Assembly: GCA_022567655.1 (NCBI GenBank)
Contig: JADFGO010000002.1
Span: 1-52,943 of the forward strand
Direction: 5' to 3'
Source: Fidelibacterota bacterium
GTDB lineage: Bacteria; Fidelibacterota; SORT01
DNA: 52,943 nucleotides
The position numbers and the translations under genes were made by a program. Every line of letters starts with the position of its first letter. The stretch's first letter is position 1. A model generated the notes under the pieces. That model was not told the origin of the DNA and made no database searches. It saw only the letters and a list, made by a program, of their open reading frames with translations. Shown in pieces: positions 3,140 to 47,270 of this stretch.

Positions 3140-3159
3140 TCGGCTCGTCGATCTATTCG

Positions 3160-3418
3160 AGGGAGGGGATTTACTCCGAGAAGAAACACACCCCGTCTTT
3201 TTTCCGTATTCACGAAAAAAATCCACCCCTCTCAAGAGGGGAATTATTAGTGTTTCTCCGATTAACGATGTGGCGCAGTCACCCTGAGCGCCAGCCCGCC
3301 TGTCTGACCGCTTGCCGGGCAGGACTGATGTCTGGCGGGAAGTCGAAGAGGGGTGCCTGCGTTAATTTGCCACGCTGTGAAGTCAATTATACGGGGACAG
3401 AGAGTGACCTGCCCCTGC
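3160..3418. repeat. Intergenic hairpin-unit cluster 1 (REP/BIME-like mosaic)
   Basis: Contains CCCCTCTcaAGAGGGG (a variant of the unit at 41370-41398), the 97-nt GTGG-headed long hairpin at 3270-3366 (also at 22252 and 42465), and a degenerate GACCTGCCCCTGC end (compare 42395-42419). It lies between convergent genes. Confidence 0.8.
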
Positions 3419-3427
3419 AAAAGTTAT

Positions 3428-6151
3428 TTAATCAGCGTTTTCTTTAAGCACCGCCTGCGCGGCGGCGAGGCGGGCGATAGGCACGCGGTAGGGTGAGCAG
3501 GAAACGTAATCGAGACCCAAGTTGTGACAGAATTCCACCGAGAGCGGGTCACCGCCGTGTTCGCCGCATATACCGATCTTGAGGTCTGGTCGTGTTGAGC
3601 GGCCCTTTTCCACACCGATCCTTATGAGCTCGCCCACACCGTCAAAATCTATCGTCTGGAAGACATCGCGCTCGTAAATTTTTTTCTCTTCGTACTCGCC
3701 GAGGAATTTTCCTGCGTCATCGCGGCTGAATCCGAAAGTCGTCTGCGTCAGGTCGTTCGTTCCAAACGAGAAAAAATCAGCCTCTTTGGCTATCTGGTCA
3801 GCCGTTAGGGAAGCACGGGGGAGTTCTATCATCGTGCCTATCAGATATTCGATTTTTACGTCTGTTTTCGAGAGTATTTCGTCCGCGACTGCCGTCACTA
3901 CAGCCTTTTGATCCCGTAGTTCCTTCCAGTGTCCGACGAGAGGGATCATAATCTCCGGCTTAACGTCTGTCCCTGATTTTTTGACTTCAACAGCGGCTTC
4001 GATGATGGCGCGAGCCTGCATCGCTGTGATCTCCGGATAGGTAAGTCCGAGTCTGCATCCCCTGTGGCCGAGCATCGGGTTGACCTCGTGAAGCGAGTTG
4101 ACCTTAGCCTGAAGTTTCTCGAAGGTTACGCCCATCTTATCGGCGAGATTTCGGATATCATCCTCATCGTGCGGGAGGAACTCATGAAGGGGAGGGTCGA
4201 GAGTTCTGATCGTTACGGGAAGTCCGTTCATCGCTTTGTAAATTCCGATAAAATCTTCGCGCTGCATCGGCAGAAGTTTATCGAGCGCTTTTTGCCTGCC
4301 CTCTTTATCATCGGCAAGTATCATCTCCCGGACCGCGTCGATTCGATCACCTTCAAAGAACATATGTTCAGTGCGGCAGAGTCCGATACCTTCCGCGCCG
4401 AATGACAGAGCTACTTCAGAGTCGTGCGGAGTGTCGGCATTCGCCCGAACATTCAGTCTTCTCTTTTCATCAGCCCATGTCATCAGTTTCTCGAACTTCT
4501 GATACAATTCCGAATCTTCAGCTTTCATACTTTTAGTGGCAACAACCTGAACTATCTCCGACGGACTGGTGCCGACCACCCCCAATATCACGTCGCCCGT
4601 GTTGCCGTTGATGGATATTTCGTCCCCTTCTTTTACGACCTTACCGTCGACCGTGAATTGTTTCGAAGCGTAGTCGATTTCGAGCGCACCGCAGCCGGCG
4701 ACACAGCATTTGCCCATACCGCGTGCGACTATAGCGGCGTGCGAGGTCATGCCGCCCCGTGCGGTCAGGATACCCTCTGCGGCATTCATCCCGGCGATAT
4801 CCTCCGGCGATGTCTCAATCCTCGTCAATATGACTTTATCGCCCCGCTCTTTCAACCTGACGGCTTCGTCGGCGGTGAAAACTACTTTACCGGTAGCGGC
4901 TCCGGGTCCGGCGTTCAGTCCGCGCGCTAAAAAGCGACCGTCAGATTTTGCTTTATCGAGGTCGTTAAAATCGAATATCGGAAAAAGAAGCTGGTTCAGC
5001 TGCTCAGGATCAACTCTCAAAAGCGCCTCATCGGTTGAGATAAGCCCTTCTTCCACCATATCAACGGCTATATTCAGGGCGGCGTGAGCGGTACGCTTTC
5101 CGGCACGGGTTTGAAGCATCCAGAGCTTGCCTTCCTGGATCGTAAATTCTATATCCTGCGTGTCCCGGTAGTGATTTTCTAATTTGTTCCTGATGTCGTT
5201 AAGCTCGTTATAAAGTTCCGGCATGATGCTTTCAAGCGTGATCTGTGAATCTTCCGATTTAGTGGCATCGTTAAGCGGCTGCGGCGTCCTTATGCCCGCA
5301 ACGACGTCCTCCCCCTGGGCATTCACAAGATATTCGCCGTAGAAAATATTTTTTCCGGTTGCCGGATCACGAGTAAAAGCCACTCCGGTTGCGGAAGCCT
5401 CGCCCATGTTGCCGAAGACCATCGACTGGACGTTGACAGCGGTTCCCCAGTGGTCGGGCAGGTGGTGTATTCGTCTATATTCAACTGCGCGCCCTATGTT
5501 CCAGGATTTGAATACTGCAAGAATCCCTCCCCAGAGCTGCTCAAGGGGATCATCGGGGAACGGATTCCCCGTTCCCGCCTCGACCAGATTCTTATACTTA
5601 TCGGTAAGCGTTTTCAAGTCTTCTACGCTAAGATCAGAGTCAGAATCAACTCCGCGGTCTTTTTTCATTTCCTCGATAAGAGCTTCAAACTTCGAGGAAT
5701 CAACTCCGAGTACAACGTTCCCATACATATAAATGAACCTGCGGAACGAGTCCCAGGCGGCGCGTTCGTTACCGCTCTTTTTAATAAAACCCTCTAATGT
5801 CTTATCGTTCAGACCGAGATTCAATACGGAATCCATCATTCCGGGCATCGATTGTCTCGCACCGGAACGCACAGAAAATAAGAGAGGATTTTCAGGGTCG
5901 CCATAGACGAGTCCGAGAGAATTTTCCACTTTATTCAGATGCTCTGCAACTTCGTCTTCGAGTCCGTCGGGTAAAGTCTGATCGTGTTCCATGAAATAGA
6001 CGCATGCTTCGGTAGTCAGAGTAAATCCGGGCGGTACGGGGATACCGATATTGCTCATTTCCGCTAAGTTAGCGCCTTTACCGCCAAGAAGGTTTTTCAT
6101 GTCGGCGGCGCCTTCAGCTTCTCCGCCGCCGAAAGAATAAACATATTTCAT
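3428..6151 (-). CDS. ppdK: Pyruvate, phosphate dikinase
   Basis: 907 aa. It has the phospho-histidine swivel motif GGMTSHAAIVARG, the C-terminal PEP-utilising domain with GICGEHGG, and full-length PpdK architecture. Confidence 0.97.
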   Translation of the reverse strand: MKYVYSFGGGEAEGAADMKNLLGGKGANLAEMSNIGIPVPPGFTLTTEACVYFMEHDQTLPDGLEDEVAEHLNKVENSLGLVYGDPENPLLFSVRSGARQSMPGMMDSVLNLGLNDKTLEGFIKKSGNERAAWDSFRRFIYMYGNVVLGVDSSKFEALIEEMKKDRGVDSDSDLSVEDLKTLTDKYKNLVEAGTGNPFPDDPLEQLWGGILAVFKSWNIGRAVEYRRIHHLPDHWGTAVNVQSMVFGNMGEASATGVAFTRDPATGKNIFYGEYLVNAQGEDVVAGIRTPQPLNDATKSEDSQITLESIMPELYNELNDIRNKLENHYRDTQDIEFTIQEGKLWMLQTRAGKRTAHAALNIAVDMVEEGLISTDEALLRVDPEQLNQLLFPIFDFNDLDKAKSDGRFLARGLNAGPGAATGKVVFTADEAVRLKERGDKVILTRIETSPEDIAGMNAAEGILTARGGMTSHAAIVARGMGKCCVAGCGALEIDYASKQFTVDGKVVKEGDEISINGNTGDVILGVVGTSPSEIVQVVATKSMKAEDSELYQKFEKLMTWADEKRRLNVRANADTPHDSEVALSFGAEGIGLCRTEHMFFEGDRIDAVREMILADDKEGRQKALDKLLPMQREDFIGIYKAMNGLPVTIRTLDPPLHEFLPHDEDDIRNLADKMGVTFEKLQAKVNSLHEVNPMLGHRGCRLGLTYPEITAMQARAIIEAAVEVKKSGTDVKPEIMIPLVGHWKELRDQKAVVTAVADEILSKTDVKIEYLIGTMIELPRASLTADQIAKEADFFSFGTNDLTQTTFGFSRDDAGKFLGEYEEKKIYERDVFQTIDFDGVGELIRIGVEKGRSTRPDLKIGICGEHGGDPLSVEFCHNLGLDYVSCSPYRVPIARLAAAQAVLKENAD

Positions 6152-6243: not shown

Positions 6244-7656
6244 TTAAGTGTTAAGCCGAGACCGAATTGTCATCCACCGGAAGATAAAAAAAAGCATGAA
6301 CGACACAGCAAGCCCGGGGAATATCGGCTCTACCCCAAAAAGATAAAGCGGTTCAAGTTGGGAACCATTGTAGAAACCGATCATTAGCAAAACCGAAGAT
6401 ATGGTGAATGCGGAAAGCATTAACCAGAGTGTGTGATTCCCCAGTAAGCGATAGCGGGGGAAATATGTCGATACGACAGGAATCAGCAGTGCCGGTATAA
6501 GCACGCTCCCGAACGAGTACCATATCCCGATTACGGAGGGAATCAGGTATGAAATCACAATCGCTGTGATCAGCGTTATTATAATACCTATCTTTGTATT
6601 TGATACGCTGTCGTCCGCTCTATTTTTTCTGAGTCTCCAGATCAGATCTCTTCCGATGGTAGCTCCGGATATCAGCGTAAGACTGTCCACAGTCGACATA
6701 ATTGTTGACAGCATTCCGATAAAAAACAGACCCTTGGCGACGGGCGGTAGTAATGCCTCAGCCAAAAGCGGGTATGCCTGAACGGGACTTATTCCGGGCA
6801 GCAATGCTCTGGCATAAAGTCCGGCGCTGATGGTCATAAAGTCAAATAATACCCAGAAACCAATGGCGATGAATATCCCTTTGCGGGCTACGGATGGATT
6901 TTTCGCGGCTGCGCAGCGCTGGTGGAATGATGGATCCACAAGCGTCCACAGGGCTATAAAGAACCAGACGATTATGTATTCTATACTAATACTACCTTGC
7001 CATGTGAGATGAAGATTGGGGACGGATGAAGAAATATAACCTATTCCGCCGAGCTCACTGACGGCAAAAAACAGCAGCATAACGAACCCGGAGTACATCA
7101 AAACGAATTGCAATTTATCCGTTTGAGCCACGGCGCTGAATCCGCCGGAATAAATATATACTACCGAAAGCAGAGCCCCTATCACTATTGAGAGACCGAA
7201 GCTCCACCCGAATATAAGCTGAAGCAGAACTCCGAGCATCAAGACATAAGGCGCCGGTGAAGAAATGAGGAATATCAACAGGCTGCCGAATATGCCTGTG
7301 GCTTTCCCGAAACTTTCATACAATCTGTCGGGCATTGTAAGAGATTCTCCCTCTCGAATTTTACCCGCAAGCAAGACAGCGAAGAGAGCTGAAAAAATAT
7401 AAAAGGGAAAACCGAGAACAATCCAGGTGGAAACCCCGTGTTGATAAGAAAATTCGCCTATCCCCAATATGCCCCCGTAAAAAGTGACAACAAGCGTAGC
7501 CACGAATCCGGGTACCGTCAGGCGTCTTCCAGCCAAAAGAAAGTTCTCGGGATCGTTGTTTTTCTTCCTTCCTGCCCGAAATCCCATGAATACGACTGTC
7601 GAAAAATACAGGAATATCAGGATCATGTCGATTCCGCTGAAGGTGATTTTATCCAA
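6244..7656 (-). CDS. Sodium:solute symporter family (SSF) transporter, last gene of the TPP-riboswitch operon (candidate thiamine/precursor importer, ThiV-like)
   Basis: 470-aa multi-pass membrane protein with an SSF-like N-terminus (TM1 followed by NFLLAGRRL). The TTG start at 7656 overlaps the thiN stop; an alternative ATG lies at 7626. Confidence 0.8.
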   Translation of the reverse strand: MDKITFSGIDMILIFLYFSTVVFMGFRAGRKKNNDPENFLLAGRRLTVPGFVATLVVTFYGGILGIGEFSYQHGVSTWIVLGFPFYIFSALFAVLLAGKIREGESLTMPDRLYESFGKATGIFGSLLIFLISSPAPYVLMLGVLLQLIFGWSFGLSIVIGALLSVVYIYSGGFSAVAQTDKLQFVLMYSGFVMLLFFAVSELGGIGYISSSVPNLHLTWQGSISIEYIIVWFFIALWTLVDPSFHQRCAAAKNPSVARKGIFIAIGFWVLFDFMTISAGLYARALLPGISPVQAYPLLAEALLPPVAKGLFFIGMLSTIMSTVDSLTLISGATIGRDLIWRLRKNRADDSVSNTKIGIIITLITAIVISYLIPSVIGIWYSFGSVLIPALLIPVVSTYFPRYRLLGNHTLWLMLSAFTISSVLLMIGFYNGSQLEPLYLFGVEPIFPGLAVSFMLFFIFRWMTIRSRLNT

Positions 7657-8305
7657 CTATCGGTGTACCATCGCTTTTTTCGAATAGTTTGAACAGAAAT
7701 AATCCGTCTCCGAATACCTTGACAGTGACAGATGGTTCCGAGACTTGATTGCTGACTCCGAAGGGACCGAACGATTGCAGTTCCCCGTCAAGCTCCCACT
7801 TTAATCCTTTTGTGGTAACCCAGGATGAACCACCGAGAACCATGAGTGAAATTTTTCTTCCTATTTCCGCCTCAAAAGTCAGGTCCTTCAGCACGAATAC
7901 AGTTTCCGCGAAGTCGTCAAGGATAGTGAGACGGGCAAGTTGATCGTACCGCTTCAGCAAGCTCAGATTCGCGAGCGAATGGTCGATCTTTTTTCCTGTC
8001 GCGCCGAGGAGAACTATCTCATCCATACCCTGAGATATTTCATACTCGATCGCCTTCATACTGTCGGTCGTGTTCTCATCGGTATCTTCGATAATTTCTG
8101 TTTTATTGAATTTCTTAACGGTCGCCGGAAGAATAGAATCCATATCTCCGATAATAAGAACGGGTGAGTAACCGGTGTCAGTCAGGTGATTAGCTCCCCC
8201 GTCCGCGCAGACTATTCTTTCGGAGGAATCGAGCAGAGCCTTAATTCTATCATTGAGAATGAAGTCTCCGTTTCCAATAACAACCGACTTTTGTATGTCG
8301 GTCAA
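7649..8305 (-). CDS. thiN: Thiamine pyrophosphokinase
   Basis: 218 aa with TPK motifs CADGGANHL, IIGDMDS, TDSMKAIEY and GATGKKIDHSLANL. It overlaps the upstream receptor gene by 4 nt. Confidence 0.88.
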   Translation of the reverse strand: MTDIQKSVVIGNGDFILNDRIKALLDSSERIVCADGGANHLTDTGYSPVLIIGDMDSILPATVKKFNKTEIIEDTDENTTDSMKAIEYEISQGMDEIVLLGATGKKIDHSLANLSLLKRYDQLARLTILDDFAETVFVLKDLTFEAEIGRKISLMVLGGSSWVTTKGLKWELDGELQSFGPFGVSNQVSEPSVTVKVFGDGLFLFKLFEKSDGTPIVG

Positions 8306-10734
8306 AACTTGAGCGTGACAGTTATATATGCGTTTCTTAAGGCGGCGGGAATATATTCGGGAATAAATCCCTGATAGTAGTACACGTAGCCGCTGGTCTC
8401 ATATTTCGTATCAAGAATATTATTGACGTTAAGCTGGATTCGGATAGGAATAGCGTTTCCGGCGTTGTTATAGTCATAACTCAGGAAGAAATTAACAATC
8501 CTATGTGCGTTTATCGATAAATCAGCTGTTCCGGAATTGTCAAGAAACTGCCCACCCACAAACCGTGTATAAAGGAACGATGAGATTGTACTTCCTCTGT
8601 ACCCTACCTTAATTCCCGCGAGGTAATCGGGAAAGCCGGAAATTTTATTGCCGGAACGGTCTATCGGAAACAGCTTCCCTTCGATGTCATATCCCGGTTC
8701 ATTGTAACTGACAAAGTAATTATCGTTGAGACTAAAATTTCCGGAGATATACGCCCCGTTCGTTAAAGACCAGGAAGCATCAGCCTCAATTCCCCGGTGA
8801 ATAGACTTCACGGCGTTGTAGTACAGTCTTAATCCGATATCGTCCACCTGTCCGGTCGGAACTATCTCATCCCTGAAGTCCATATAGAATAAATTAAGTT
8901 TCAAAAATGCATTTGAGTTCCGCCATGCGCCTCCGAGTTCGTAATCATAGAGGGTTTCTTGTCCTATAAGCGGTTTGCTGAAGTTCGGTGTGCCGTCCGG
9001 GTTTAATTCAAAACGAGGTACGGCATAAGGGTCGTCGGCGTCATAAATGTCCGCGTCTCTCGGCTCGCGATTGGCAACGGAGAAATTGACAAATGCCGTT
9101 ATGCTGCTGTTCAGCCTGCGATTAATACCCATTCGGGGTGTGAGAAAGTTATAGTTCACACTGTATTCATAATCGTTTTTGAAGGCGCCTATCGGGTTCT
9201 GATCGAAATCATAGCCGATATGCTGATATTGAACGTCGAACATCAGGTCTGTATTTTCGTCTATACCGTATACTACGTGAGTGTAAATAGTGGAGGATTG
9301 TTTACCGGTTTCGTACCCGTAATATTTGTTGTTAGGCGGCGTTTGATTGTTCTCTTTTACCCAAATAACTTCACCCCAGTGCTTTGCGTTATAGAAGCTG
9401 AACTCTGCTCCCAATGCCAGCGACCAGCCGGCTTTCGTGAAAGTAAATCTGGGGAGCCATCCCCATTGTGATTTATCAACGTTCTTCTTTCGCACGAGGT
9501 CAGTGGTTTCAACACCAACGAGGTTATACTCGACAGGATTTCTGTCAGATTTATAATCCTGAAAGAAACCGTCGCCCTTTACATGGAAGAAGGTGTTCTC
9601 GAATCTGATTTGTTCATTTATTCTCCAGTCGTTGATTAACTGATAGTGGCTTTGTAAAAAATCGTCCACCTGCTCGTCGAAGAATTCATTTTCTTCGCTT
9701 GGCGAATAAAAATTTGAGCGGCGCAGATCGTCATCATCTAAGAGATCCTTACCGATACCGAACCATGCGAATTTTGCCACCAATGGTCCACCGAATACGT
9801 TAAACGTGGTCGTCATATCACGGTCATAGCGGCTGCCGGATAAAAAATACGACCATGAATCGACGCCGGAGTCTGTCCGGTATCCGTCCGTTCGTAATTT
9901 GGAAAATCTTCCGTAGGCGGAATACTTGTTTTCAATGTAGCCGGTTCCAAAAGAAAAATTTAATCTTCGCGTATTGTAACTACCGGACGTTCCTGAAAGA
10001 GTAATTCCCGGTTCTGTGCCGGCGCCTTTCGTCAGTATATTAATCGAACCTCCGATAGCGGCAGTCCCATATAGTGAGTTACCGACGCCTCTTTGAACCT
10101 GAACGTCTTGTATATTGGCGGAGAGGTCTGCTATATCATAAAAATAAGTCACGTGGTCTTCCGGGTCGTTCAGCGGAACGCCATTCAGGGTTACGGCAAC
10201 TCTTGTGGCGTCAAAACCCCTGATTTTTATCTCCGTGTAACCCATTCCGCTTCCGGTCATGGAATAGGAGTAGAGGCTCGGGATTTCGTCGAGGAGCATC
10301 GGGAGTTCCTGAGAGGAATATTTTTCGGTCAGCGTCCTTGAATCCACATTACTGAATGCTACCGGGGTTTTCCCGCTGATCGCCCGGGTTGCGCTCACCA
10401 CAACGTTTTCTCCTTCGAGTATCCTCGGATAAAGAGAAAAGAGCACAGAAAGAGCGGTCTGTCCGACCGTTATCTTTTGTTTCCGGACATCGTACCCGAT
10501 CACACCCGCGCTTATGGTGAATTCTCCGGCCGGCACGCCGCGAATAATGAATTGACCGCTTTCATTTGTGGCGGCGCCGAACGTAGTGCCTTCTATGAGT
10601 ACGTTAGCTCCAAAAATAGGCTTGTTATCTATGGCGTTTCTTACGCTGCCTGATATTTCACTGCTGATTTGAGCGTTGGAGAATATTGGAACGAGTGTAA
10701 TAATTACTCCGGTGATGATATTCAGATAATTCAT
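8302..10734 (-). CDS. TonB-dependent outer-membrane receptor (thiamine-regulated)
   Basis: It has the signal peptide MNYLNIITGVIITLVPIFSNAQ, a CarboxypepD_reg-like N-domain, a plug, and a beta-barrel ending YITVTLKF. The ORF-track start at 10809 would translate the riboswitch. The ATG at 10734 has GGAGGGAGG 4 nt upstream. Confidence 0.9.
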   Translation of the reverse strand: MNYLNIITGVIITLVPIFSNAQISSEISGSVRNAIDNKPIFGANVLIEGTTFGAATNESGQFIIRGVPAGEFTISAGVIGYDVRKQKITVGQTALSVLFSLYPRILEGENVVVSATRAISGKTPVAFSNVDSRTLTEKYSSQELPMLLDEIPSLYSYSMTGSGMGYTEIKIRGFDATRVAVTLNGVPLNDPEDHVTYFYDIADLSANIQDVQVQRGVGNSLYGTAAIGGSINILTKGAGTEPGITLSGTSGSYNTRRLNFSFGTGYIENKYSAYGRFSKLRTDGYRTDSGVDSWSYFLSGSRYDRDMTTTFNVFGGPLVAKFAWFGIGKDLLDDDDLRRSNFYSPSEENEFFDEQVDDFLQSHYQLINDWRINEQIRFENTFFHVKGDGFFQDYKSDRNPVEYNLVGVETTDLVRKKNVDKSQWGWLPRFTFTKAGWSLALGAEFSFYNAKHWGEVIWVKENNQTPPNNKYYGYETGKQSSTIYTHVVYGIDENTDLMFDVQYQHIGYDFDQNPIGAFKNDYEYSVNYNFLTPRMGINRRLNSSITAFVNFSVANREPRDADIYDADDPYAVPRFELNPDGTPNFSKPLIGQETLYDYELGGAWRNSNAFLKLNLFYMDFRDEIVPTGQVDDIGLRLYYNAVKSIHRGIEADASWSLTNGAYISGNFSLNDNYFVSYNEPGYDIEGKLFPIDRSGNKISGFPDYLAGIKVGYRGSTISSFLYTRFVGGQFLDNSGTADLSINAHRIVNFFLSYDYNNAGNAIPIRIQLNVNNILDTKYETSGYVYYYQGFIPEYIPAALRNAYITVTLKF

Positions 10735-10741
10735 TTTGCCT

Positions 10742-10814
10742 CCCTCCGCTGGTATTATCCAGATCAGGTTGTAAGGGTATGTTCTCAGGCGGTATGGAGG
10801 AACCGCCACCCCTG
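10742..10814 (-). promoter_or_regulatory. TPP (THI-box) riboswitch
   Basis: The minus-strand RNA reads GGGGUGGCGGUUCCUCCAUACCGCCUGAGAACAUACCCUUACAACCUGAUCUGGAUAAUACCAGCGGAGGGAGG. This contains the conserved CUGAGA and ACCUGAUCUGGAUAAUACCAGCG blocks, colinear with E. coli thiM. The 3' end merges with the SD of the receptor gene. Confidence 0.95.
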
Positions 10815-10827
10815 TTGTTTCTCTGAT

Positions 10828-10866: not shown

Positions 10867-11092
10867 TGTGCGGTCGGGACTTGCCCTCTTTTCAAAGGAG
10901 GGGATACGAAACCTCCTCCCTCGAGGGAGGTGTCCCGAAGCTTCGGGACGGACCTGCCCGACTAATGTCAGGCGGGGGGTGTGATTCTGATGTTTTCTTC
11001 AAAAATATCGTCACCGAACGATTACACCCCTCGTCCCGGCAGCTGCCGGGACACTCCCCTCAAGGGGAGAGAATCTGAGGTGCAGTCGGGGG
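10867..11092. repeat. Composite hairpin-mosaic element, copy A (right end truncated)
   Basis: Colinear with 11559-11812. The 88-nt core 10949-11036 matches 11654-11741 at 87/88 positions. It starts with TGTGCGGTCGGGACTTGCCC. Confidence 0.9.
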
Positions 11093-11103: not shown

Positions 11104-11133
11104 ACAAAAACCTCTTAAAAACCGTTTTAAGAG
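11104..11133 (-). terminator. Rho-independent terminator of the merT-like gene
   Basis: The minus strand reads CTCTTAAAA-cggt-TTTTAAGAG followed by GTTTTTGT. The stem is a perfect 9 bp, 47 nt after the stop codon. Confidence 0.7.
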
Positions 11134-11179: not shown

Positions 11180-11533
11180 TCAGCGATTATAGACAAACGT
11201 AACGACTTCAGGGAGGAGCTTAAAAGCGATTATCAATCCGTAAGAACTCCAGAGCACTGCCTTGCGCCAGTTACGTCGTTCAACGGATCTGCCCTCATCG
11301 GAAATTTTGACGGAGGAAGAGGCAGTTCCGTTTTTTCCATATTCCATGTAGTAGGCTGCACCGAGCAGTAGGATTGTAGCGGTTACATTATAAATTCTGT
11401 TCTCGGCAAACCACGGACCGACGTTGAGTCCCCCGAGCCCGATCAGGTTCAAAGTAGCGGGACCTACGCAGCAGAGCGTGGACATGAATCCCGTGACTAT
11501 CGCCGCCGTCGATGCAAACAAACTCCAGATCAT
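11180..11533 (-). CDS. MerT-like small membrane protein (N-terminal CC motif)
   Basis: 117 aa. FMSTLCCVGPATLNLIGLGG..PW aligns with MerT ILASTCCLGPLVLVALGFSGAW, and length and TM layout match MerT (116 aa). The cytoplasmic-loop Cys pair of MerT is absent. Confidence 0.55.
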   Translation of the reverse strand: MIWSLFASTAAIVTGFMSTLCCVGPATLNLIGLGGLNVGPWFAENRIYNVTATILLLGAAYYMEYGKNGTASSSVKISDEGRSVERRNWRKAVLWSSYGLIIAFKLLPEVVTFVYNR

Positions 11534-11558: not shown

Positions 11559-11812
11559 TGTGCGAGTCAGGGCTTGCCCGACTTTACAAAGGAGGGGAAA
11601 CGAAACCTCCTCCCTCGAGGGAGGTGTCCCGTCCCGAAGTTTCGGGATCGGGACGGACCTGCCCGACTAATGTCAGGCGGGGGGTGTGATTTTGATGTTT
11701 TCTTCAAAAATATCGTCACCGAACGATTACACCCCTCGTCCGGCTGAGCCGGACACTCCCCTCAAGGGGAGAGAATCTGAGGTGCGGGTCGGGACAAACC
11801 CTGACTGCCACA
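11559..11812. repeat. Composite hairpin-mosaic element, copy B (complete, with inverted terminal units)
   Basis: It is a direct repeat of copy A. The termini GTGCGAGTCAGGGCTTGCCCGAC (11560-11582) and GTCGGGACAAACCCTGACTGCCAC (11788-11811) are inverted repeats of each other. The element begins 25 nt upstream of the merT-like start codon. Confidence 0.9.
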
Positions 11813-14103: not shown

Positions 14104-14139
14104 CTGAATAAGACTGTTTAAGAACTGAAGGGAAAAATT

Positions 14140-14679
14140 CTGGTTGATCTGAATCGAACGGGAATTTCTGAATTCAATTTCTGCCCGCAGTGCGGAAGTG
14201 ATAAGATAGAGCTTCAACACGTAGATGAACGGGAAAGGGCGGTCTGTTCAAGCTGCGGCAAAGTACTCTACCAAAACCCGATTCCCTCCGTTGTAGGGAT
14301 CTCTATAATAGATGGAAAGATCCTCCTTGTAAAACGCGGAGTGGAGCCGGATATCGGTTCATGGTGCTTGCCGGGCGGATTTATGGAACTCGGCGAAACG
14401 TCGGTTGAAGCGGTTATCAGAGAGCTCAAAGAGGAAACGGGAATCGGTGTGATCCCCCGGGAAGTTCTAATGGTGGATACGACGATCGGTGGTTTTTACG
14501 GCGACGTTGTGGTAATAGCTTACGAGATAACGTTAGAAAGCAGTGAGTTCACTCCCGGTGACGACGCATTAGAAGTAAAGTATTTTAATTATGACGAGCT
14601 GCCGCGTTTAACGTTTCAAAGTCACAAGCTGATAATCGACCATGCGTTTGAAGGATTGGAATCCCACTCAGATAAATAA
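14140..14679 (+). CDS. Nudix hydrolase with N-terminal zinc ribbon; non-canonical start (CTG 14140 or ATT 14137)
   Basis: It has the Nudix box GGFMELGETSVEAVIRELKEETG. The in-frame upstream sequence encodes CPQCGSDK..CSSCGK and the first Nudix strands (IPSVVGISIIDGKILLVKRG). The in-frame stop is at 14119-14121, and there is no ATG/GTG/TTG before the internal GTG at 14341. AAGGGA lies 6 nt upstream of the CTG at 14140. Confidence 0.7.
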   Translation: MVDLNRTGISEFNFCPQCGSDKIELQHVDERERAVCSSCGKVLYQNPIPSVVGISIIDGKILLVKRGVEPDIGSWCLPGGFMELGETSVEAVIRELKEETGIGVIPREVLMVDTTIGGFYGDVVVIAYEITLESSEFTPGDDALEVKYFNYDELPRLTFQSHKLIIDHAFEGLESHSDK

Positions 14680-18412: not shown

Positions 18413-19379
<967 letters not shown>

Positions 19380-19490
19380 AAAGAATTATTTTTTTCATCG
19401 ATTTACTTCTGAATCCGTGACTGATCCTAAAGAGATATATGACTACTGTTCAAAATGGGGAGTTTGATAGAGAGCTTTCCCTGAAGTTCA

Positions 19491-19745
19491 TCAGGGGGCG
19501 TGGACACTCACGAATTTCCTGTTGTTCTTTTTGGTGTCGAATTTTACTAAACCGTCTATAAGCGCGAACAGTGAATCATCGCTGGCTCTTTTTACATTGG
19601 TTCCGGGCTTAAATTTGGTGCCCCTCTGTTTAATGATAATACTTCCGGCGGTGACTTTTTGACCGCCAAAAGCTTTAACTCCGAGCATTTTCGGTTTACT
19701 GTCGCGCCCGTTCTTTGAACTTCCCACACCTTTTTTATGTGCCAT
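19491..19745 (-). CDS. rpmA: 50S ribosomal protein L27
   Basis: 84 aa starting [16 protein letters not shown]. Confidence 0.97.
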
Positions 19746-19762
19746 TATTAACTCCGGATAAT

Positions 19763-21802: not shown

Positions 21803-21894
21803 AGTTTATTTAATTCTCCCTAAACAAAGCTAAGGTAATTATCAGACTGATGTCATGCAATTCAATTTTTTATCGGTGAGAGGAGATGGAGTGC

Positions 21895-22592
21895 ATCGGC
21901 GGCCGGGCAAAGGCCCGGCTCCTGACGGGCTGCCGGATTCCCGCATATCTGTTCTCCTCCCTTGAGGGAGGTGTCCCGAAGCTTCGGGACGGCCACTCCC
22001 CTCGAGGGGAGAGGATTATCCTCCCTCTTTTCAAGGAGGGGGAAGGGCGTGGTTGTCTTCATTAATGCGGTCAGGGCAAGCCCTGACTCGCACGGTGCTG
22101 TCATTATGGGGTGTGAATACCGTCGGAGGCTGGGGAACGTTAAAGCCCATCCGTCTGGACGGCCAGCCCAACATCGATTTGGCGGGCAAAGCCGGGCAGG
22201 ACATTTTTGTCAGCTCTTCTGTCCGGATTTCTCAGAATGACAGCATTTGGTGTGGCGCGGTCACCCTGAACGCATGTCCGACTGCTTGCCAGGCGGGAAG
22301 TCGAAGGGTGACTGCGTTAATATGCTGAGGATAGATCGCAGACACTGATTCTCAATCATAAATGGCTGGGCTTTTATAAGGGAAATTACTCCTAAATCCC
22401 CTCTTTGATGGGATATGTAGGGGAGGGTTTGTAACCCTCCCGAAATATGCGGGCTGGTTATAAACCAGCCCCTACGGTGCAGTTACAAATAACTCGCAGA
22501 AAGCAGGAGTTGTCCATGTGTAATTCCCCACTTTTTCCCGGACAATTCCCCGCTTTCTTCGGGGTAAACGTGAATTGTCCCTACAGTTGGGG
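21895..22592. repeat. Intergenic hairpin-unit cluster 4 (largest mosaic array, ~700 bp)
   Basis: Contains at least 12 hairpin units that also occur in the other clusters. See findings for unit coordinates. Confidence 0.9.
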
Positions 22593-22599
22593 TTGAAGG

Positions 22600-23328
22600 T
22601 TATTCTTTGCTGAAGACCCAGCTGCCGTCGGCTCTTTCGATTCCCTTATTCGGATTCATGAACACGAGCTTGAGTTTCCCATTTTCAGGCACCCAGGGGG
22701 TGCCGTCAAATTTACTTTTCGGGAGAAGCAATCCGAACTGAACTTTTTTGGTTTGCGCCTTCCGCCAGTTTTGGCGGACGGGAGGTTCATTCTCGGGCGA
22801 TAAAGTGACTATTAGCGGAACTTTTTTCGGTTCGTACTGATTTTCGTCTTCATCTTCCACAAATATGACCCACCGATCCGGGCTGAGATATTCCTTTGCA
22901 AAAGTCGTCCTCATGTAAATCCATATTAGATTATTGTTCTTCAGATCATAATCAGTGTTATATCTTATAAGCAACGAATCAGACTCTAACATGTCCATTC
23001 CAAGTGTGTTTTGATAAAATTCTCCGGCGCTTCGGAGTACCTCATCCGTCATCATTGTAGCGCTTATCAGCAATGGGAAACCCGGATATACGGAAGATGC
23101 CGCACCCGGTTTGCCAATCCCCGTGAAAAATGCGTCACTGTTTCCGGTCATCCGGACTCCGGTGCCGAACAGGATGGTATTTTTCGAAATTGCTTCGATA
23201 TACTCTGTAGCTTCCGATTTGTAGATAAATCCGTTTTGTGACGAAGTTTCGACAGCGGTATAGCATCCGAGTGAAAAACCGGATAAAATTAAACAAACGA
23301 TGCCCAAACGATAGCATTCTTTTGTCAT
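22600..23328 (-). CDS. Hypothetical secreted/lipoprotein
   Basis: 242 aa with an N-terminal hydrophobic signal ending in Cys (LSGFSLGC). The ATGA overlap with the upstream gene suggests translational coupling. I recognise no motif. Confidence 0.6.
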   Translation of the reverse strand: MTKECYRLGIVCLILSGFSLGCYTAVETSSQNGFIYKSEATEYIEAISKNTILFGTGVRMTGNSDAFFTGIGKPGAASSVYPGFPLLISATMMTDEVLRSAGEFYQNTLGMDMLESDSLLIRYNTDYDLKNNNLIWIYMRTTFAKEYLSPDRWVIFVEDEDENQYEPKKVPLIVTLSPENEPPVRQNWRKAQTKKVQFGLLLPKSKFDGTPWVPENGKLKLVFMNPNKGIERADGSWVFSKE

Positions 23329-24143: not shown

Positions 24144-24412
24144 CGGGTCAAATTAACCGGTGGTGGAAGTAATTGTCAAGTTTGACGGCGGCAAAAACAG
24201 AATCGGTCGATTTTAATGCAAGAATAAATATGAATCGTGGAAAGAAAATATTTCTTGGAATTTGAACAAATCGGGTTAATATTACACAATATGTAGTGTA
24301 TGAGGATATTTATATACTACAGATTGAAACTATCCAACTGAAAATTTAGTAGAATTATACGTTTATACGGTGAAAGCCAAGCTGACTGGATAAATTGATG
24401 AAGAGGGAGGCA

Positions 24413-24985: not shown

Positions 24986-25014
24986 AAAGACCGGTTTTCA
25001 AACCGGTCTTTTTT
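24986..25014 (+). terminator. Rho-independent terminator
   Basis: AAAGACCGGTT-ttca-AACCGGTCTTT followed by a T-run. Confidence 0.8.
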
Positions 25015-25054
25015 ATGTATGAAATAATCACGGCGAGAAAAGTTATAAATTTAC

Positions 25055-25083
25055 TTGACAGGGGATGATAATCCGATTATAAT
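25055..25083 (+). promoter_or_regulatory. Perfect-consensus sigma70 promoter
   Basis: TTGACA (25055-25060), a 17-nt spacer, and TATAAT (25078-25083), 62 nt upstream of the ATG at 25145. Confidence 0.65.
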
Positions 25084-25144
25084 GGAAGCAGTCAAACTCT
25101 TTTCGTGAGTGATTAATGAGTCTTTCGAGAAATTGCATAACAAT

Positions 25145-26653
25145 ATGAAGAAATTATTTTTACTCTTTCTTCTTGCCTCTTGTTTTCTTTATGGGGAAAC
25201 ATTACGGGCACAGCTACGCTCCGACTTCGTCCTTGCTGATTCTGCAATCGGCGGAAACATCAAGCTTGACGGAGAAGGAAATCTCCATGCCGTTTGGAGA
25301 AAAGCTGATACCTCGTATGGTGCAGAAAGACCGGCATATTATGCAGCTTTCGATTCCATGGGGCTTCCCATATTAGCCCCTGCAAGAGTTTCTATCAGTA
25401 ATAATATCTGGTTTCCTCGCATCGCCTTATTAAAAGGTCACGCGGTAGTGGTCTGGGAGATACGAGGGAGCCTTGACGCCGATGAGATCGAAGCGAACGT
25501 TCTTGATCTTAGCGAAGAAATAGTGCAAAGAGCTACCGATTTTGCTGACGGGGACACATATTCGCCGGACGTTGCGTATCTGAACGACACAACGTTCATC
25601 GTTGTCTGGATAGGGGAGGGTTCATTTACTCAATCGGATTTCCAACTTTACGGTCAGATAGCCACCAACTCACTTATTTTCCAGGGAGGGCATATCCTTT
25701 TAGATGACCCAAAAGAACGCGGTGTAAGGCAATTTTCGCTGCGTGTTGTCGCCCGTCCCGAACGGGATGATTTTCTGATTGTCTGGCTTGATGACCGTTC
25801 GGGCAGTTTCAGAGCGTACGGAAGGCTGTTTAATTCGAACGGTTCACCCGTGGGTTCAAATTTCCTCATAAGCGAAGATCCGCAACTTACCTGGCTGGGA
25901 GAGGTTAGTGTCGCTATGAATGGGAGCGGAGAGTTCGGTGTTGTCTGGGCAGGTGAGACCGATTCGAACGAGTGGGTCGTTCAAATGCGGCGGCTCGGCG
26001 TTGATGGGACGCCTCTTGGTCCAAGCATACGAGTCGATTTATCAGCGCACAATTCTCTTTTCACGGACTATCCTGATATCTCGTTCGACCGTGATGGTAC
26101 TTTTATCGTGGTCTGGGACATGTTTATAAACGGTATTTCGAAAATTTACGCTCAGCGCTTCGAGTCAGATTGGACACCGCTGGGGGTCAACTTCAGAGTC
26201 TCCTCGGTTATGGATAGTTCACGCCAATATTTCTCAAGTGTTTTGCTCCGAAATGGAAGAATTTACACCACATGGACTTCGGCAGGCGATTCGACGGCAG
26301 CTAAGCTTCTATCAAACATAATTGACTTTTATGATCCACCGAACCTTGAAACTCAATCAGAACCGATTTTACCTCTCGCCTTTTCTCTACACCAGAATTA
26401 CCCCAATCCTTTTAATGCCATTACAACCATCGTATACGAAATCAAGCGCCCCTCGAGAGTACGGCTGGTTGTTTATAATATATTGGGTGAAGAGGTGACT
26501 ACACTTGTGCGGGATATGAAAATACCGGGAGTCTATGAATCAGTGTGGGACGGAAAAGACCGGCAGGGGATGGAAGTGTCATCAGGGGTTTACCTGTATC
26601 AACTCATGTCAGATGGACAGGTACAGACAAAGAAGATGGTTTTGTTGAAGTAG
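25145..26653 (+). CDS. Secreted repeat protein (about seven ~55-aa blades) with T9SS C-terminal sorting domain
   Basis: It has the signal peptide MKKLFLLFLLASCFLYG and a periodic hydrophobic-VW motif (AVVVW, FIVVW, FLIVW, FGVVW, FIVVW, IYTTW). The C-terminus YPNPFNAITTIVYEI..VYNILGEEV..GVYLYQL resembles a T9SS CTD. Confidence 0.8.
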   Translation: MKKLFLLFLLASCFLYGETLRAQLRSDFVLADSAIGGNIKLDGEGNLHAVWRKADTSYGAERPAYYAAFDSMGLPILAPARVSISNNIWFPRIALLKGHAVVVWEIRGSLDADEIEANVLDLSEEIVQRATDFADGDTYSPDVAYLNDTTFIVVWIGEGSFTQSDFQLYGQIATNSLIFQGGHILLDDPKERGVRQFSLRVVARPERDDFLIVWLDDRSGSFRAYGRLFNSNGSPVGSNFLISEDPQLTWLGEVSVAMNGSGEFGVVWAGETDSNEWVVQMRRLGVDGTPLGPSIRVDLSAHNSLFTDYPDISFDRDGTFIVVWDMFINGISKIYAQRFESDWTPLGVNFRVSSVMDSSRQYFSSVLLRNGRIYTTWTSAGDSTAAKLLSNIIDFYDPPNLETQSEPILPLAFSLHQNYPNPFNAITTIVYEIKRPSRVRLVVYNILGEEVTTLVRDMKIPGVYESVWDGKDRQGMEVSSGVYLYQLMSDGQVQTKKMVLLK

Positions 26654-26701
26654 AGTTCTTAAAAGAGTAGGTTCTGCAACGAATAAGAATATTTCGTTAT
26701 C

Positions 26702-26796
26702 GTGGCAGTCAGGGCAAGCCCTGACTCGCACTTATAATTCTGCAGTTTAGAAGTCATGGGACGCAGATCTGCGTCCCCTACTTTCGTCCAGACGAA
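26702..26796. repeat. Intergenic hairpin-unit cluster 5 (solo units)
   Basis: Contains GTGGCAGTCAGGGCAAGCCCTGACTCGCAC (26702-26731), GGGACGCAGATCTGCGTCCCCTAC (26758-26781, GTAG head on the minus strand) and TTCGTCcaGACGAA (26783-26796). Confidence 0.85.
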
Positions 26797-26843
26797 GAAG
26801 ATGTTACTTTTGAGGTAGAAGTAGACGGAGATTAAGTCCTTTT

Positions 26844-27458
26844 TTACTCTGAGCTCTTCTTTTTCGGTTTCATGAGTTCGCCGAACTCATAACCGAGCGC
26901 GCCGGATGTCGCTATCACGGTTCTGCCCATATCGACGAGCGGATCGGGGAATTCATCCCAAACGGCATCCGAATCATAAAGGAAGAACATATCCCACGCT
27001 ACGCTGCTGGTGACGTCGGGTGCGATGTTTTTCTTGAAGAACGTTCCGCTTAACCGCGTCGGGTCCCAATAATGCAGGACGCGCGAGTCGGGAAGAAGCG
27101 CTACAGCGTCGGGTACGGCGAGTTTCGAATCACCGCGGATAACAGGCATCCAGACGACGTAGAGCTGAAAGTCCGCATCGGGATATTTTGTCAGTATATT
27201 TTTCTGCACCCACCTGGCGCCGCGGATACAAACCGATCAGGTAGGAGACATTAACAGGAAGAGCCTTACCTTTCCCCCGTCCTTGTTGAAAAGCTCCTTG
27301 AGAGTGTCAATGCCTTGAAGTTCTTTGAAGCGGGCGTTACGGTATTGATTATTAGCGGGATCTGCCGCTATCTGACTGCCGGGGATTATGAAAAGGACAA
27401 GAAAAAGGAATATGCGTATTCTATTTAAGTAGTTTGTTCTCAACGGCCCTCCAATCAA
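26844..27458 (-). CDS. Candidate selenoprotein: secreted thioredoxin-fold protein with U-x-x-C motif (in-frame TGA at 27237-27239)
   Basis: ORFs 27237..27458 and 26844..27209 share a frame and are separated only by TGA plus 9 sense codons. The read-through product is ..VRLFLLMSPT-U-SVCIRGARWVQKN..FQLYVVWMP.., the beta1-CxxC-alpha1-beta2 layout of thioredoxin folds. An N-terminal signal anchor is present only in the upstream part. Confidence 0.65.
27205..27230 (-). promoter_or_regulatory. SECIS-like hairpin 6 nt downstream of the in-frame UGA
   Basis: The minus-strand RNA is UGUAUCCGC-GGCGCCAG-GUGGGUGCA. It forms a 9-bp stem (3 G.U) with an 8-nt loop starting GG, about 16 nt after the UGA. 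Confidence 0.5.
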
Positions 27459-27542
27459 TTTAGATGTAAATCAGTGAACTATTTCGTGTGAACTTATCGG
27501 TGAGGAATATACAAATCAAGTGAAAATCTCGGGAATAACAGC

Positions 27543-27571
27543 TTGCAATAGTAGGATAGCCGTTATATATT
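27543..27571 (+). promoter_or_regulatory. Putative sigma70 promoter of the Rrf2 operon
   Basis: TTGCAA-17 nt-TATATT. Confidence 0.5.
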
Positions 27572-27575
27572 TCAA

Positions 27576-27594
27576 TCGGACAAAGATTGTCCGA
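27576..27594. promoter_or_regulatory. Palindromic operator candidate (8-3-8)
   Basis: TCGGACAA-aga-TTGTCCGA lies immediately downstream of the -10 and upstream of the Rrf2 regulator gene, so an autoregulatory site is plausible. Confidence 0.45.
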
Positions 27595-29478: not shown

Positions 29479-29504
29479 AAGCCTCTCGAGAATGAATTAA
29501 TCAA

Positions 29505-29540
29505 CCCCGACATCAGCCGGAGCTGATGTCGGGGTTTTTT
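29505..29540 (+). terminator. Rho-independent terminator
   Basis: CCCCGACATCAGC-cgga-GCTGATGTCGGGG followed by TTTTTT. Confidence 0.9.
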
Positions 29541-29588
29541 AATCTTATTCGCTTTGAAATTTTACCCTGTTTTTGTTACATTCCGATT

Positions 29589-41277: not shown

Positions 41278-41548
41278 GTGCGAGTTAGGGCTTGCCCTGA
41301 CCGCAATCCCTTACACACCCTCCCGAAATAGAATCGGGATAAACTTCCTCCGGAAGGAGTTCCTTCGGAACACCCCTCTTATTAGAGGAGAATAATCGGT
41401 ATTTTTTATTGGAAAACCACCCCTTGTGTTCCCCTCCTTGGGAAGGAGGGGATATGTAGGGACAACTCAAGAGTTGTCCACAGGTATTTACCCGCTTTTT
41501 TCCGGGCGATTCCCCGCTTTCTTCGGGGTAAACGTGAATCGCCCCTAC
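41278..41548. repeat. Intergenic hairpin-unit cluster 6
   Basis: It starts with GTGCGAGTTAGGGCTTGCCCTGAC and ends with the 45-nt two-hairpin unit at 41504-41548. It also contains AACCACCCCTTGTGTTCCCCTCCTTG..AAGGAGGGGA (also at 42243-42283). Confidence 0.9.
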
Positions 41549-42042: not shown

Positions 42043-42088
42043 CGTTTTGTCAAGTAAAATTTCTTTTAATATCCCTGTTACATATTAT
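42043..42088 (+). repeat. 46-bp direct repeat, copy 1 (marR-proximal promoter region)
   Basis: CGTTTTGTCAAGTAAAATTTCTTTTAATATCCCTGTTACATATTAT matches 42555-42600 at 42/46 positions. It contains a TTGACA -35 for marR on the minus strand. Confidence 0.9.
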
Positions 42089-42098
42089 GAAAAATATA

Positions 42099-42547
42099 GT
42101 GCGAGTCGGGGCTTGCCCTGACCGGTGAACAGGTGAGTCAGCATCATCGAAATCCATGACTGTCGCAAAGAGCGTGAACGCCCTTCGAGTAATAATCGTT
42201 GATCATATAACCCAGCCATAAATGGCTGAGCTAAAGAAATGAGAACCACCCCTTGTGTTCCCCTCCTTGCGTAAGGAGGGGAAGATTTATCCCATCTTCG
42301 ATGTGGGATACGTAGGGGAGGGTTTATTAACCCTCCCGCGTTAGAGGGCAGGCCCGCCTGGCCAGCTCGGCATCGGTCTGACGGGCAAGAAGTCGGGCAG
42401 GTCACAGACCTGCCCCTACCTTGACACACCCCGTTCGGCTGAGCCGGATGACCGGCACTCTTAGGTGGCGCAGTCACCGAAGGTGCCTGCGTTATACTAT
42501 TGTGAAAAGATCGCAGGCATCACGTTGCGTCATGATGACTGCGCCAC
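42099..42547. repeat. Intergenic hairpin-unit cluster 7 (flanked by the 46-bp direct repeats)
   Basis: It starts with GTGCGAGTCGGGGCTTGCCCTGAC and ends with the inverted GTGG-headed doublet at 42465-42547. It shares more than 6 units with clusters 3, 4 and 6. Confidence 0.9.
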
Positions 42548-42554
42548 ATTATAG

Positions 42555-42600
42555 CGTTTTCTCAAGTAAAATTTCTTTTAATATCCCTGTTGCGTGTTAT
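42555..42600 (+). repeat. 46-bp direct repeat, copy 2 (yjbQ-proximal promoter region)
   Basis: CGTTTTCTCAAGTAAAATTTCTTTTAATATCCCTGTTGCGTGTTAT. Its 3' end supplies TTGCGT, followed by 17 nt and TAGATT upstream of yjbQ. Confidence 0.9.
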
Positions 42601-46885: not shown

Positions 46886-47015
46886 GTGTGAGGGGTTAAT
46901 TCGTTAATAAACATAGCTATATTTTACTTGTCATTATTTAAATCGGTTATTATATTCCACTCGGTTGAAATGCCGTCCTTTAATATAATTGTAAAATGAG
47001 ATAGGGGAGAGTGCA

Positions 47016-47192
47016 ATGATAAGAAATAACCCTATGGCATTCGGGATACTGCTTGGGCTTGGAGGAGTATTTGTTCTCTATACATGGTGGGGCGACAGGT
47101 CCGGGTTCGGAATTTTCGGTTTTGTGATAGGATTGTTCTCGTTAGGGGTTGGATTGTGGAATATAGTAGAAGCCGGAAAAAAGAAGACTTAA
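47016..47192 (+). CDS. Unannotated 58-aa two-TM membrane protein
   Basis: ATG preceded by GGGGAGAgtgca. The product is MIRNNPMAFGILLGLGGVFVLYTWWGDRSGFGIFGFVIGLFSLGVGLWNIVEAGKKKT, below the 60-aa cutoff of the ORF track. A hairpin plus T-run follows. Confidence 0.55.
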   Translation: MIRNNPMAFGILLGLGGVFVLYTWWGDRSGFGIFGFVIGLFSLGVGLWNIVEAGKKKT

Positions 47193-47240
47193 CGGAATAA
47201 CGAGGGCAGGATAGCCGAAGCCGGCTATGAATTCTTATTT

Positions 47241-47270
47241 ACCGCAGTGATTTATTCAGTGCGGTTTTTT
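47241..47270 (+). terminator. Terminator hairpin between convergent genes
   Basis: ACCGCAGTG-atttatt-CAGTGCGGT (one mismatch) followed by TTTTTT. Confidence 0.6.

Follow-up and report, generated by a model that had tools for sequence, protein, structure and literature searches.

The spacers of the 52,943-nt window analysed here (contig JADFGO010000002.1 of a Fidelibacterota bacterium) contain eight clusters of short palindromic units, c1 to c8, the largest of which is the flagged interval 21895-22592 (c4). We interpret these clusters, with a probability of about 0.6, as a mosaic of several families of small non-autonomous palindromic repeats, resembling the repetitive extragenic palindromes (REPs) and bacterial interspersed mosaic elements (BIMEs) of E. 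coli, or the Neisseria intergenic mosaic elements (NIMEs), in which the subset of units headed by the tetranucleotide GTAG would be GTAG-REPs moved by a Y1 enzyme of the REP-associated tyrosine transposase (RAYT) type encoded elsewhere. The units are lineage-restricted, intergenic and nested, with conserved frames that hold interchangeable hairpins. All host copy counts given below refer to the window (~53 kb).

A reading made from the sequence alone had placed eight clusters and their constituent units in the window, and every coordinate that we checked holds. Its statement that the clusters account for almost all spacers longer than 200 bp was too strong: the eight clusters are real, but of the 12 spacers with 200 nt or more, seven contain a cluster, as does one spacer of 190 nt, and five long spacers (14104-14340, 19337-19762, 24144-24394, 27210-27586 and 46886-47274) are free of them. 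Perfect hairpins with a stem of at least 7 bp are about 10-fold denser in intergenic DNA (4.85 per kb) than in coding DNA (0.49 per kb). As compared with shuffled sequences, the folding z-scores of c2, c3, c4 and c7 range from -6.3 to -8.1 (-6.5 for c4), those of c5 and c6 are about -3, and c1 and c8 reach only -1.5; seven cluster-free spacers lie between -2.3 and +2.0. Moreover, the over-represented 11-mers of the window and the related loci all derive from these repeat units.

Could the clusters be chimeras or mis-joins of the assembly, a weakness that had been raised along with the original proposal? Repeats do break assemblies, the contigs of the related population are short (mostly <10 kb), and at c4 one scaffold of a metagenome-assembled genome (MAG) is interrupted by 100 Ns; the repeats seem to fragment metagenome assemblies. 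However, c2, c3 and c5 recur collinearly and without indels in three contigs from other samples and other assemblers (L221, L222 and L227), and c5 is identical in L227, a contig of strain B. We give the artefact explanation practically no credence.

GTAG-headed units and known REP systems

In eight units, GTAG directly adjoins an exact 9-bp stem that starts with GGG or GGA and encloses a 2-4-nt loop or a longer inner hairpin. These eight units have seven different stems, in line with the earlier count of at least six stems behind the GTAG head. The association of head and hairpin is far from random. Among the intergenic short-loop hairpins with a stem of at least 9 bp, 6 of 13 are flanked by GTAG (binomial p ~4e-10), and 8 of the 15 GTAGGGR sites lie in the intergenic 12% of the window, the remaining seven all being coding and none of them accompanied by a hairpin. 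The units form three heads-outward dimers (22417/22475, 41456/41548 and 42312/42419), a degenerate dimer (22504-22584) and a singleton (26781); these inverted pairs, and the further pair at 42465/42547, are present as proposed from the sequence. One type of linker recurs, in that the 93-nt dimer element 41456-41548 is 85% identical to 22504-22584.

The GTAG-REP superfamily comprises, among others, the E. coli REPs, the Pseudomonas REPs and REPINs and the Stenotrophomonas SMAG elements. Its members are extragenic stem-loops of 20-45 nt, in which an unpaired GTAG (GT[AG]G) at one end adjoins a 6-13-bp stem closed by a short loop; they occur most commonly as GTAG-outside dimers, and fall into sub-families through complementary stem changes (Di Nocera et al. 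2013, PMC3733652). Judged from sequence, the eight GTAG units of the window show every one of these features: the GTAG is unpaired, the GC-rich stem is 9 bp long, the loop spans 2-4 nt, the units are extragenic and mostly arranged as GTAG-outside dimers 10-60 nt apart, and complementary stem changes separate the sub-families. The architecture that had been recognised as REP-type, a GT[AG]G head abutting a palindrome in inverted doublets, is thus upheld for the GTAG units. They differ from the described superfamily in several respects. The phyla listed for GTAG repeats are Proteobacteria, Cyanobacteria, Chloroflexi and the Planctomycetes-Verrucomicrobia-Chlamydiae (PVC) group (PMC3733652), and the window's phylum, Marinimicrobia, is not among them. 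The ratio of seven stems to eight copies is very high, much larger mosaics of untagged palindromes surround the units, and insertions of single units were not observed. REP systems have a cognate RAYT (Y1/HUH) gene in the same genome with the same REPs at its flanks, and neither the window nor the collected contigs of its lineage showed such a gene.

As in E. coli BIMEs, the arrays are intergenic, the GTAG pairs alternate in orientation, and they are combined with other short motifs; in the window, most of the mosaic consists of other palindromes. The E. coli elements use a small set of such motifs, whereas the window has many more motif families, hairpins nested in frames, and arrays of up to 0.7 kb. 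The NIMEs of Neisseria (dRS3 or CGTC-1 repeats with RS elements) are likewise large, strain-variable intergenic mosaics in which tagged palindromes are interleaved with other families (PMC3733652), but their tags and sequences differ, and no connection of the window repeats with phage integration or with a recombinase of the Piv/irg type is known.

The GTAG design extends beyond this lineage. The pattern GTAGGGG MDGGTY n3-4 RACCHKCCC matched at least 120 unrelated IMG/VR contigs, mostly of high GC content (43-71% GC), and among the matches listed, 192 of 207 are exactly complementary, with GTAGGGGCGGGTTTCAAACCCGCCC as the dominant form. Because exact-hairpin matches abound in these contigs, we regard the GTAG units of the window as low-GC members of a cosmopolitan design. 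Hairpins of the GTAGGGGCGGGTTTCAAACCCGCCC type are very common in the viral-classed contigs L023-L140 (such as L054, L040, L071 and L092), mostly of high GC, at densities of up to 7 per 14.5 kb; in L054, six of seven lie on one strand. A literature search with the GTAGGGG hairpin sequences returned unrelated primers only, and no paper naming GTAGGGGCGGGTTTCAAACCCGCCC was found. GTAG-REPs typically exceed 100 copies per genome. With eight copies in 53 kb, the genome would hold some hundreds of GTAG units if the density of the window held throughout, but relatives 96-97% identical have a single, degenerate copy at the orthologous spacers.

Untagged families and composite X

Most of the 2.3 kb of mosaic has no GTAG head and is made of the families A, B to F, H, X and Y. 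Since most of the mosaic lies in untagged families that are also found in other sampled Marinimicrobia, the proposed picture of one REP system with many stems is too simple. Nor are the GTGC, GTGG and GTAG heads variants on one unit, as had been suggested: they mark separate families, including a 30-nt near-palindrome and a 75-95-nt palindrome. Unit A is a near-palindromic hairpin of 28-30 nt with a fixed asymmetry. Its sequence GTGCGAGTCAGGGCTTGCCCTGAC is exact at 22070-22093(-) and 26708-26731(-), has one mismatch at 41278 and 42099, and is degenerate at 10867, 11560 and 11782-11811; shuffled sequences gave no matches. The GTGG units are long palindromes of 75-95 nt, at 3269, 22251, 42465 and 42547(-), and the headless palindromes named by the sequence-only reading are all present.

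The other families are modular. Module B has the form CCACCCC..TCCCCTCCTT-n-AAGGAGGGG, module C is GTCCCGAAGCTTCGGGAC, module D/Y is CCCCTCT-n-AGAGGGGTGG..GGGGTGTG, and the H unit is GTCATTGCGAGGAG..AATCTC. Module F (CTCCCCTCAAGGGGAGAG) lies at 11054-11075, 11756-11777 and 21996-22017. Many units are even-length perfect palindromes without a real loop, and many stems are purine/pyrimidine runs resembling Shine-Dalgarno and anti-Shine-Dalgarno sequences (AAGGAGGGG / CCCCTCCTT). In the composite X (right part), Y, B and H frames, one fixed position holds unrelated hairpins in different genomes. Conversely, one hairpin may occupy different frames: GTCCCGAAGCTTCGGGAC lies in X in the window and in H in the contig L012, and the 34-nt hairpin 11622-11655 recurs within H frames of relatives. 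These exchangeable inner hairpins are perfect and 17-34 nt long. The H unit (GTCATTGCGAGGAG..GAAGCAATCTC, with the variant GAGATTCT..AGAATGAC) is such a frame, found in L004, L007, L010, L011, L014-L016 and L019, in L236 (rc) at 4921-5138, and in the window at 52869-52907. H-like sequences are presumably widespread in other phyla, often beside small GIY-YIG genes.

How far do these families reach? A pattern scan of one genome per GTDB species found unit A at 18 loci, 17 of which come from the Marinimicrobia genomes MAG B25T3L8, MT.SAG.2 and MT.SAG.3; the 18th, from a Rokuibacteriota contig, is a stray match without the palindromic half of the unit, and none is from the window's own genome. The three Marinimicrobia genomes share the vocabulary (unit A, modules B, C, D/Y, E and F, and the H unit) in shuffled order. 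Unit A had no match in IMG/VR, and families A-F had none in 931 kb of unrelated bacterial DNA, which came from a metagenome scan with an RNase G query and served as the negative control. That scan yielded no relative closer than 51% identity. No GTAG hairpins were seen in the unit A loci of the three genomes; therefore, the mosaic is mostly shared among the sampled Marinimicrobia, and the GTAG class is specific to the sub-lineage of the window. Part of the Marinimicrobia thus carries a rich, nested palindromic repeat system that includes, by sequence criteria, GTAG-type REPs.

Composite X occurs in two copies of 225-252 nt (c2 and c3), on either side of an open reading frame (ORF) for a MerT-like protein of 117 aa. 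Its 94-nt core is 99% identical between the copies, two hairpins differ by palindrome-preserving changes, and the core ends E and F are complementary over ~22 nt, like terminal inverted repeats (TIRs). In copy 2, 252 nt are enclosed by inverted copies of unit A. Such inverted ends, together with the presence or absence of whole blocks among relatives, would be expected if X, Y and the c7 block were miniature inverted-repeat transposable elements (MITEs), deletion derivatives of insertion sequences (ISs) that a DDE-type or other transposase moves through the TIRs, with the short hairpins as internal decoration. In addition, GGGGAGAG in module F fits the motif GGGGWSAS, reported for inverted repeats on either side of Y1 transposase genes of the TIR-associated type (PMC3733652), a match that could be due to chance. 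X is comparable to MITEs, Correia, BOX, RUP and TIRYT repeats in its inverted ends, its length of 0.2-0.25 kb, its multiple copies and its presence in some relatives and not in others; in being modular it is reminiscent of BOX elements, and the GGGGWSAS-like motif of F recalls TIRYT repeats. However, no short target duplication accompanies c3, c5 or a 218-nt insertion found in relatives, the only duplication being one of 46 nt; boundaries and content vary from copy to copy, and inner hairpins can be exchanged. In ~220 kb of Marinimicrobia sequence, no unit has a neighbouring transposase gene of whatever kind, and no autonomous partner of X was found. Apart from the inverted ends of X, the hallmarks of MITEs (TIRs, a short fixed target-site duplication and a related autonomous IS) were thus not found in this sequence, and we consider this explanation quite improbable.

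The ORF between the two direct X copies (11180-11533, minus strand) encodes a 117-aa membrane protein that is weakly MerT-like, with a CC motif and a score under the family cut-off. It shows 0 of 354 differences from strain B, and the neighbouring genes differ by ~2%. Its start codon is ATG in the window vs TTG in the relatives without X.

Turnover at orthologous spacers and possible mechanisms

Contigs of relatives with flanks 95-98% identical to the window were recovered through protein cluster mates, and the spacers were compared at orthologous sites. At the c3 site, the 322-nt spacer containing X copy 2 corresponds to a 33-nt spacer in eight contigs of relatives. At the c2 site, 313 nt in the window correspond to 70 nt, X being missing after GGAGGGGATACGAAA. 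The c5 cluster belongs to a strain-specific segment of 1.8 kb (25038-26837), in place of which a 97% identical relative has 23 nt, and the c7 site is empty in L237 and L238, in which the whole 466-nt block is absent. A 46-nt sequence brackets c7 in the window with one copy on each side, whereas the relatives have a single copy, whose 5' end is like that of the left copy and whose 3' end is like that of the right copy. In the opposite direction, the window has GTTG (19368-19371) at a site where the relatives hold a clean H-type mosaic of 218 nt. Other sites are filled differently: the 315-nt mosaic at c6 is matched in relatives by a different mosaic of 255 nt, with the same first 8 nt (GTGCGAGT) and, at its end, a GCAG-headed REP-like hairpin, so that a REP-like head lies at the same edge, and c8 has the same H frame in L237 around another inner hairpin, ATCCGCCAGCTGGCGGAT. 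The c4 site is not scorable, a relative's scaffold having its 100-N gap exactly there (L236 (rc) 7651-7750 corresponds to window 21883-22816). Across the compared sites, the relatives (96-97% identical) show one degenerate GTAG unit, as compared to five in the window.

In summary, genomes whose flanking genes are 95-98% identical differ in whether a whole block of 0.2-0.5 kb is there, is missing or is exchanged for another, and the strain that is 98-99% identical retains the arrays. Mobility or rapid turnover, previously a matter of conjecture, is therefore borne out at the orthologous sites, and the turnover of the repeat system outpaces a sequence divergence of 2-5%. Because relatives lack or replace most blocks, the behaviour of the arrays is that of mobile DNA, or of DNA made unstable by recombination, and not that of fixed regulatory sequence or conserved regulatory RNA. 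The units would make good strain markers and explain why MAGs of this group are fragmented.

The 1.8-kb segment containing c5 has a perfect TTGACA-17-TATAAT promoter, followed by a gene for a 514-aa protein with a type IX secretion system (T9SS) sorting tail, and then by unit A and the GTAG REP.

Y1 and RAYT genes were searched by phmmer and jackhmmer in six-frame translations of the window and all collected loci, using as queries the E. coli RAYT (checked against PDB 4ER8) and the TnpA proteins of IS608 and IS200. The sole Y1 match in 2.2 Mb of collected DNA is a RAYT-like gene (L141, 1577-2059; PF01797), so the search can detect RAYTs. This RAYT-like Y1 gene (also L223, 10001-10480) belongs to an AT-rich distant relative, the RNase G of which is 51% identical. 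The gene lies between GGGAGC..GCTCCC inverted repeats, and its lineage is without GC-rich hairpin mosaics. The best 120 homologues of the E. coli RAYT protein are all from Enterobacteriaceae and none from the lineage of the window, and the L141 protein has two matches, neither of which leads to that lineage. RAYT subclasses and REP/RAYT systems are known in Bacteroidetes (PMC6006769), and a host of the Fibrobacteres-Chlorobi-Bacteroidetes (FCB) group is therefore less unusual than was first implied.

How would such mosaics arise? We propose that the GTAG hairpins fold in single-stranded DNA, and that they would be recognised and moved by a REP-associated tyrosine enzyme (HUH/Y1) of the RAYT type, whose gene would lie in another part of the genome; the GTAG members are probably handled by such an enzyme. 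New units would land preferentially beside or inside existing hairpins, which would let the arrays grow at a few spacers. Recombination among the many short shared frames would then swap inner hairpins and delete or duplicate whole blocks. The non-GTAG families might share this enzyme, depend on a TIR-type Y1 enzyme or do without a dedicated one, and any RNA role, such as 3'-end protection, would be secondary.

Several observations weigh against this REP/RAYT reading. Single-sequence and jackhmmer searches, which cover a small part of any genome, found no Y1 or RAYT gene in the window, as had been stated earlier, or in ~45 kb of close-relative contigs; 122 kb of sequence from three further Marinimicrobia genomes and the GTAGGGG-rich contigs of IMG/VR (1.07 Mb) gave none either. 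No clean single-REP insertion was seen, every polymorphism being a block, and the moving unit may therefore be the block and not the hairpin. The 46-nt flanking duplication is not a product of Y1 or DDE transposition, and seven stems in eight GTAG units exceed the diversity expected from copy-and-paste of a few masters. Finally, the arrays differ from those of the 98-99% identical strain at 3 of 868 positions (0.35%), as compared to 1.41% in coding DNA and 1.32% in other spacers (p ~0.002), and this ~4x lower divergence could reflect selection on function instead of selfish spread.

This last point is what would be expected if the arrays were selected RNA or DNA structures, serving in 3'-end protection, processing or protein binding, and if their repetition had come from regulatory modules that converged or were duplicated, and not from mobility. 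Several clusters are placed downstream of genes, in spacers between convergent ones, the variation in stems is compensated, and many stems contain the Shine-Dalgarno-like and anti-Shine-Dalgarno-like runs. On the other hand, the same spacers are empty or differently filled in relatives 95-98% identical, the clusters occupy convergent, tandem and divergent spacers alike, they have neither an Rfam match nor T tracts, and perfect palindromes with zero loop make poor RNA hairpins. We regard an origin through selected structure as very doubtful.

The restriction of polymorphism to blocks, the 46-nt duplication and the diversity of stems keep two further explanations alive. In the first, no dedicated transposase takes part: fork stalling with template switching or snap-back synthesis would make the palindromes, and short-homology recombination or gene conversion would shuffle them. 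This would suit the many even-length perfect palindromes without a real loop, the symmetry-preserving changes between copies (such as GTCCCGAAGCTTCGGGAC vs GTCCCGTCCCGAAGTTTCGGGATCGGGAC), the different hairpins held at one frame position even at orthologous loci, the single 46-nt copy of the relatives, which looks like a recombinant of the two at c7, and the failure to find a Y1 gene in the window and the collected contigs of the lineage. CGTC-tagged REPs have also been reported without an associated transposase (PMC3733652). It leaves unexplained, however, the invariant unpaired GTAG tag and fixed 9-bp stem over seven unrelated stems, and the recurrence of the design in unrelated organisms; identical hairpins of 18 nt and 34 nt in different frames and species look copied, not made anew. 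We think this unlikely, although it is the alternative that we take most seriously.

In the second, which we rank just after it as an unlikely, speculative possibility, the 17-34-nt perfect palindromes would themselves be mobile between frames (X, Y, B, H and unit A), by means of an enzyme other than a classical RAYT or of a repair pathway, and blocks would integrate with 46-nt target duplications. Movement of this kind would explain both the unrelated hairpins at one frame position in relatives 96-97% identical and the occurrence of one hairpin in several frames and species; if true, an abundant marine phylum without cultured members would show a mode of micro-scale DNA mobility that is new. 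The pattern of frames with exchangeable hairpins and the 46-nt duplication offer testable handles on the construction of REP/BIME-type mosaics.

Feature inventory and genomic setting

Table 1. Repeat clusters of the window and their components
Feature	Coordinates	Strand	Content
c1	3149-3419	.	Y composite, GTGG-headed long palindrome and degenerate GCAG-headed REP-like hairpin
c1, Y composite	3169-3245	-	GAGGGGTGG / variable hairpin / GACGGGGTGTG
c1, GTGG-headed long palindrome	3269-3366
c1, degenerate GCAG-headed REP-like hairpin	~3393-3419	-	Adjoins PPDK stop codon
c2 (composite X copy 1), first part	10867-11092 (whole cluster)	+	Truncated unit A, B-like hairpin, E hairpin CCTCCCTCGAGGGAGG, hairpin GTCCCGAAGCTTCGGGAC
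c2, second part	within 10867-11092	+	CCTGCCCGAC..GTCAGGCGGG hairpin, long GGGGTGTGAT..ATTACACCCC hairpin, hairpin GTCCCGGCAGCTGCCGGGAC, F hairpin CTCCCCTCAAGGGGAG
c3 (composite X copy 2)	11560-11811	+	Edges: unit A 11560-11582, inverted unit A 11782-11811
c4 (flagged interval)	21895-22592	.	698 nt, largest cluster
c4, modules E, C, F and B-like hairpin	21952-22047
c4, unit A	22066-22093	-
c4, GTGG long palindrome	22251-22325
c4, GTAG dimer	22417-22475		Heads outward
c4, 5'-degenerate copy of 93-nt dimer element	22504-22584		Its GTAG REP at 22540-22584 (-)
c5	26702-26781	.	Unit A 26702-26731, single GTAG REP 26758-26781 (-)
c6	41278-41548	.	Unit A 41278-41305, B module 41417-41452, 93-nt GTAG heads-outward dimer 41456-41548
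c7	42089-42554	.	466-nt mosaic: unit A 42099-42124, B module 42246-42283, GTAG heads-outward dimer 42312-42419, GTGG long palindrome 42465-42547
46-nt direct repeat beside c7, left	42043-42088	+	91% identity between copies
46-nt direct repeat beside c7, right	42555-42600	+
c8 (cut by window end)	52869-52943	.	H-type frame GAGATT CTTCGTC / CGGCTCAGCCG / GAC TCAGAATGACAG, then more hairpins
GTAG units	22417, 22475, 22584, 26781, 41456, 41548, 42312, 42419	+, -, -, -, +, -, +, -

The spacers with clusters have a GC content of 43-53% (at least 48% in six of the eight), and those without clusters 33-44%.

Other identities for the clusters were rejected. Searches against Rfam, at the gathering thresholds and at E values up to 1, matched nothing in the clusters and only a thiamine pyrophosphate (TPP) riboswitch at 10724-10823, which leaves no known structured RNA as a candidate. 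No cluster hairpin has a T tract on either strand, and intrinsic terminators were discarded accordingly, as were CRISPR-like and integron attC readings. Three canonical terminators with a hairpin and a T tract (11112-11133 on the minus strand, 24986-25016 and 29503-29542) lie outside the repeats, and the organism therefore uses ordinary terminators.

Marinimicrobia (SAR406) are uncultured and abundant in the dark ocean, and a targeted literature search found no description of their non-coding DNA. The FCB-like host proposed from the sequence is confirmed by cluster mates at least 90% identical to the window proteins, which carry the names Candidatus Marinimicrobia or Neomarinimicrobiota. The window is an ordinary chromosomal stretch of ~47% GC, with genes for PPDK, Mdh, RNase G, BamA, lipid A synthesis, RseP and NifS. 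The TPP riboswitch (63 bits, minus strand) lies upstream of genes for a TonB-dependent receptor, a thiamine pyrophosphokinase and a sodium:solute symporter, which together look like a thiamine-salvage operon, and composite X copy 1 is located ~45 nt upstream of it.

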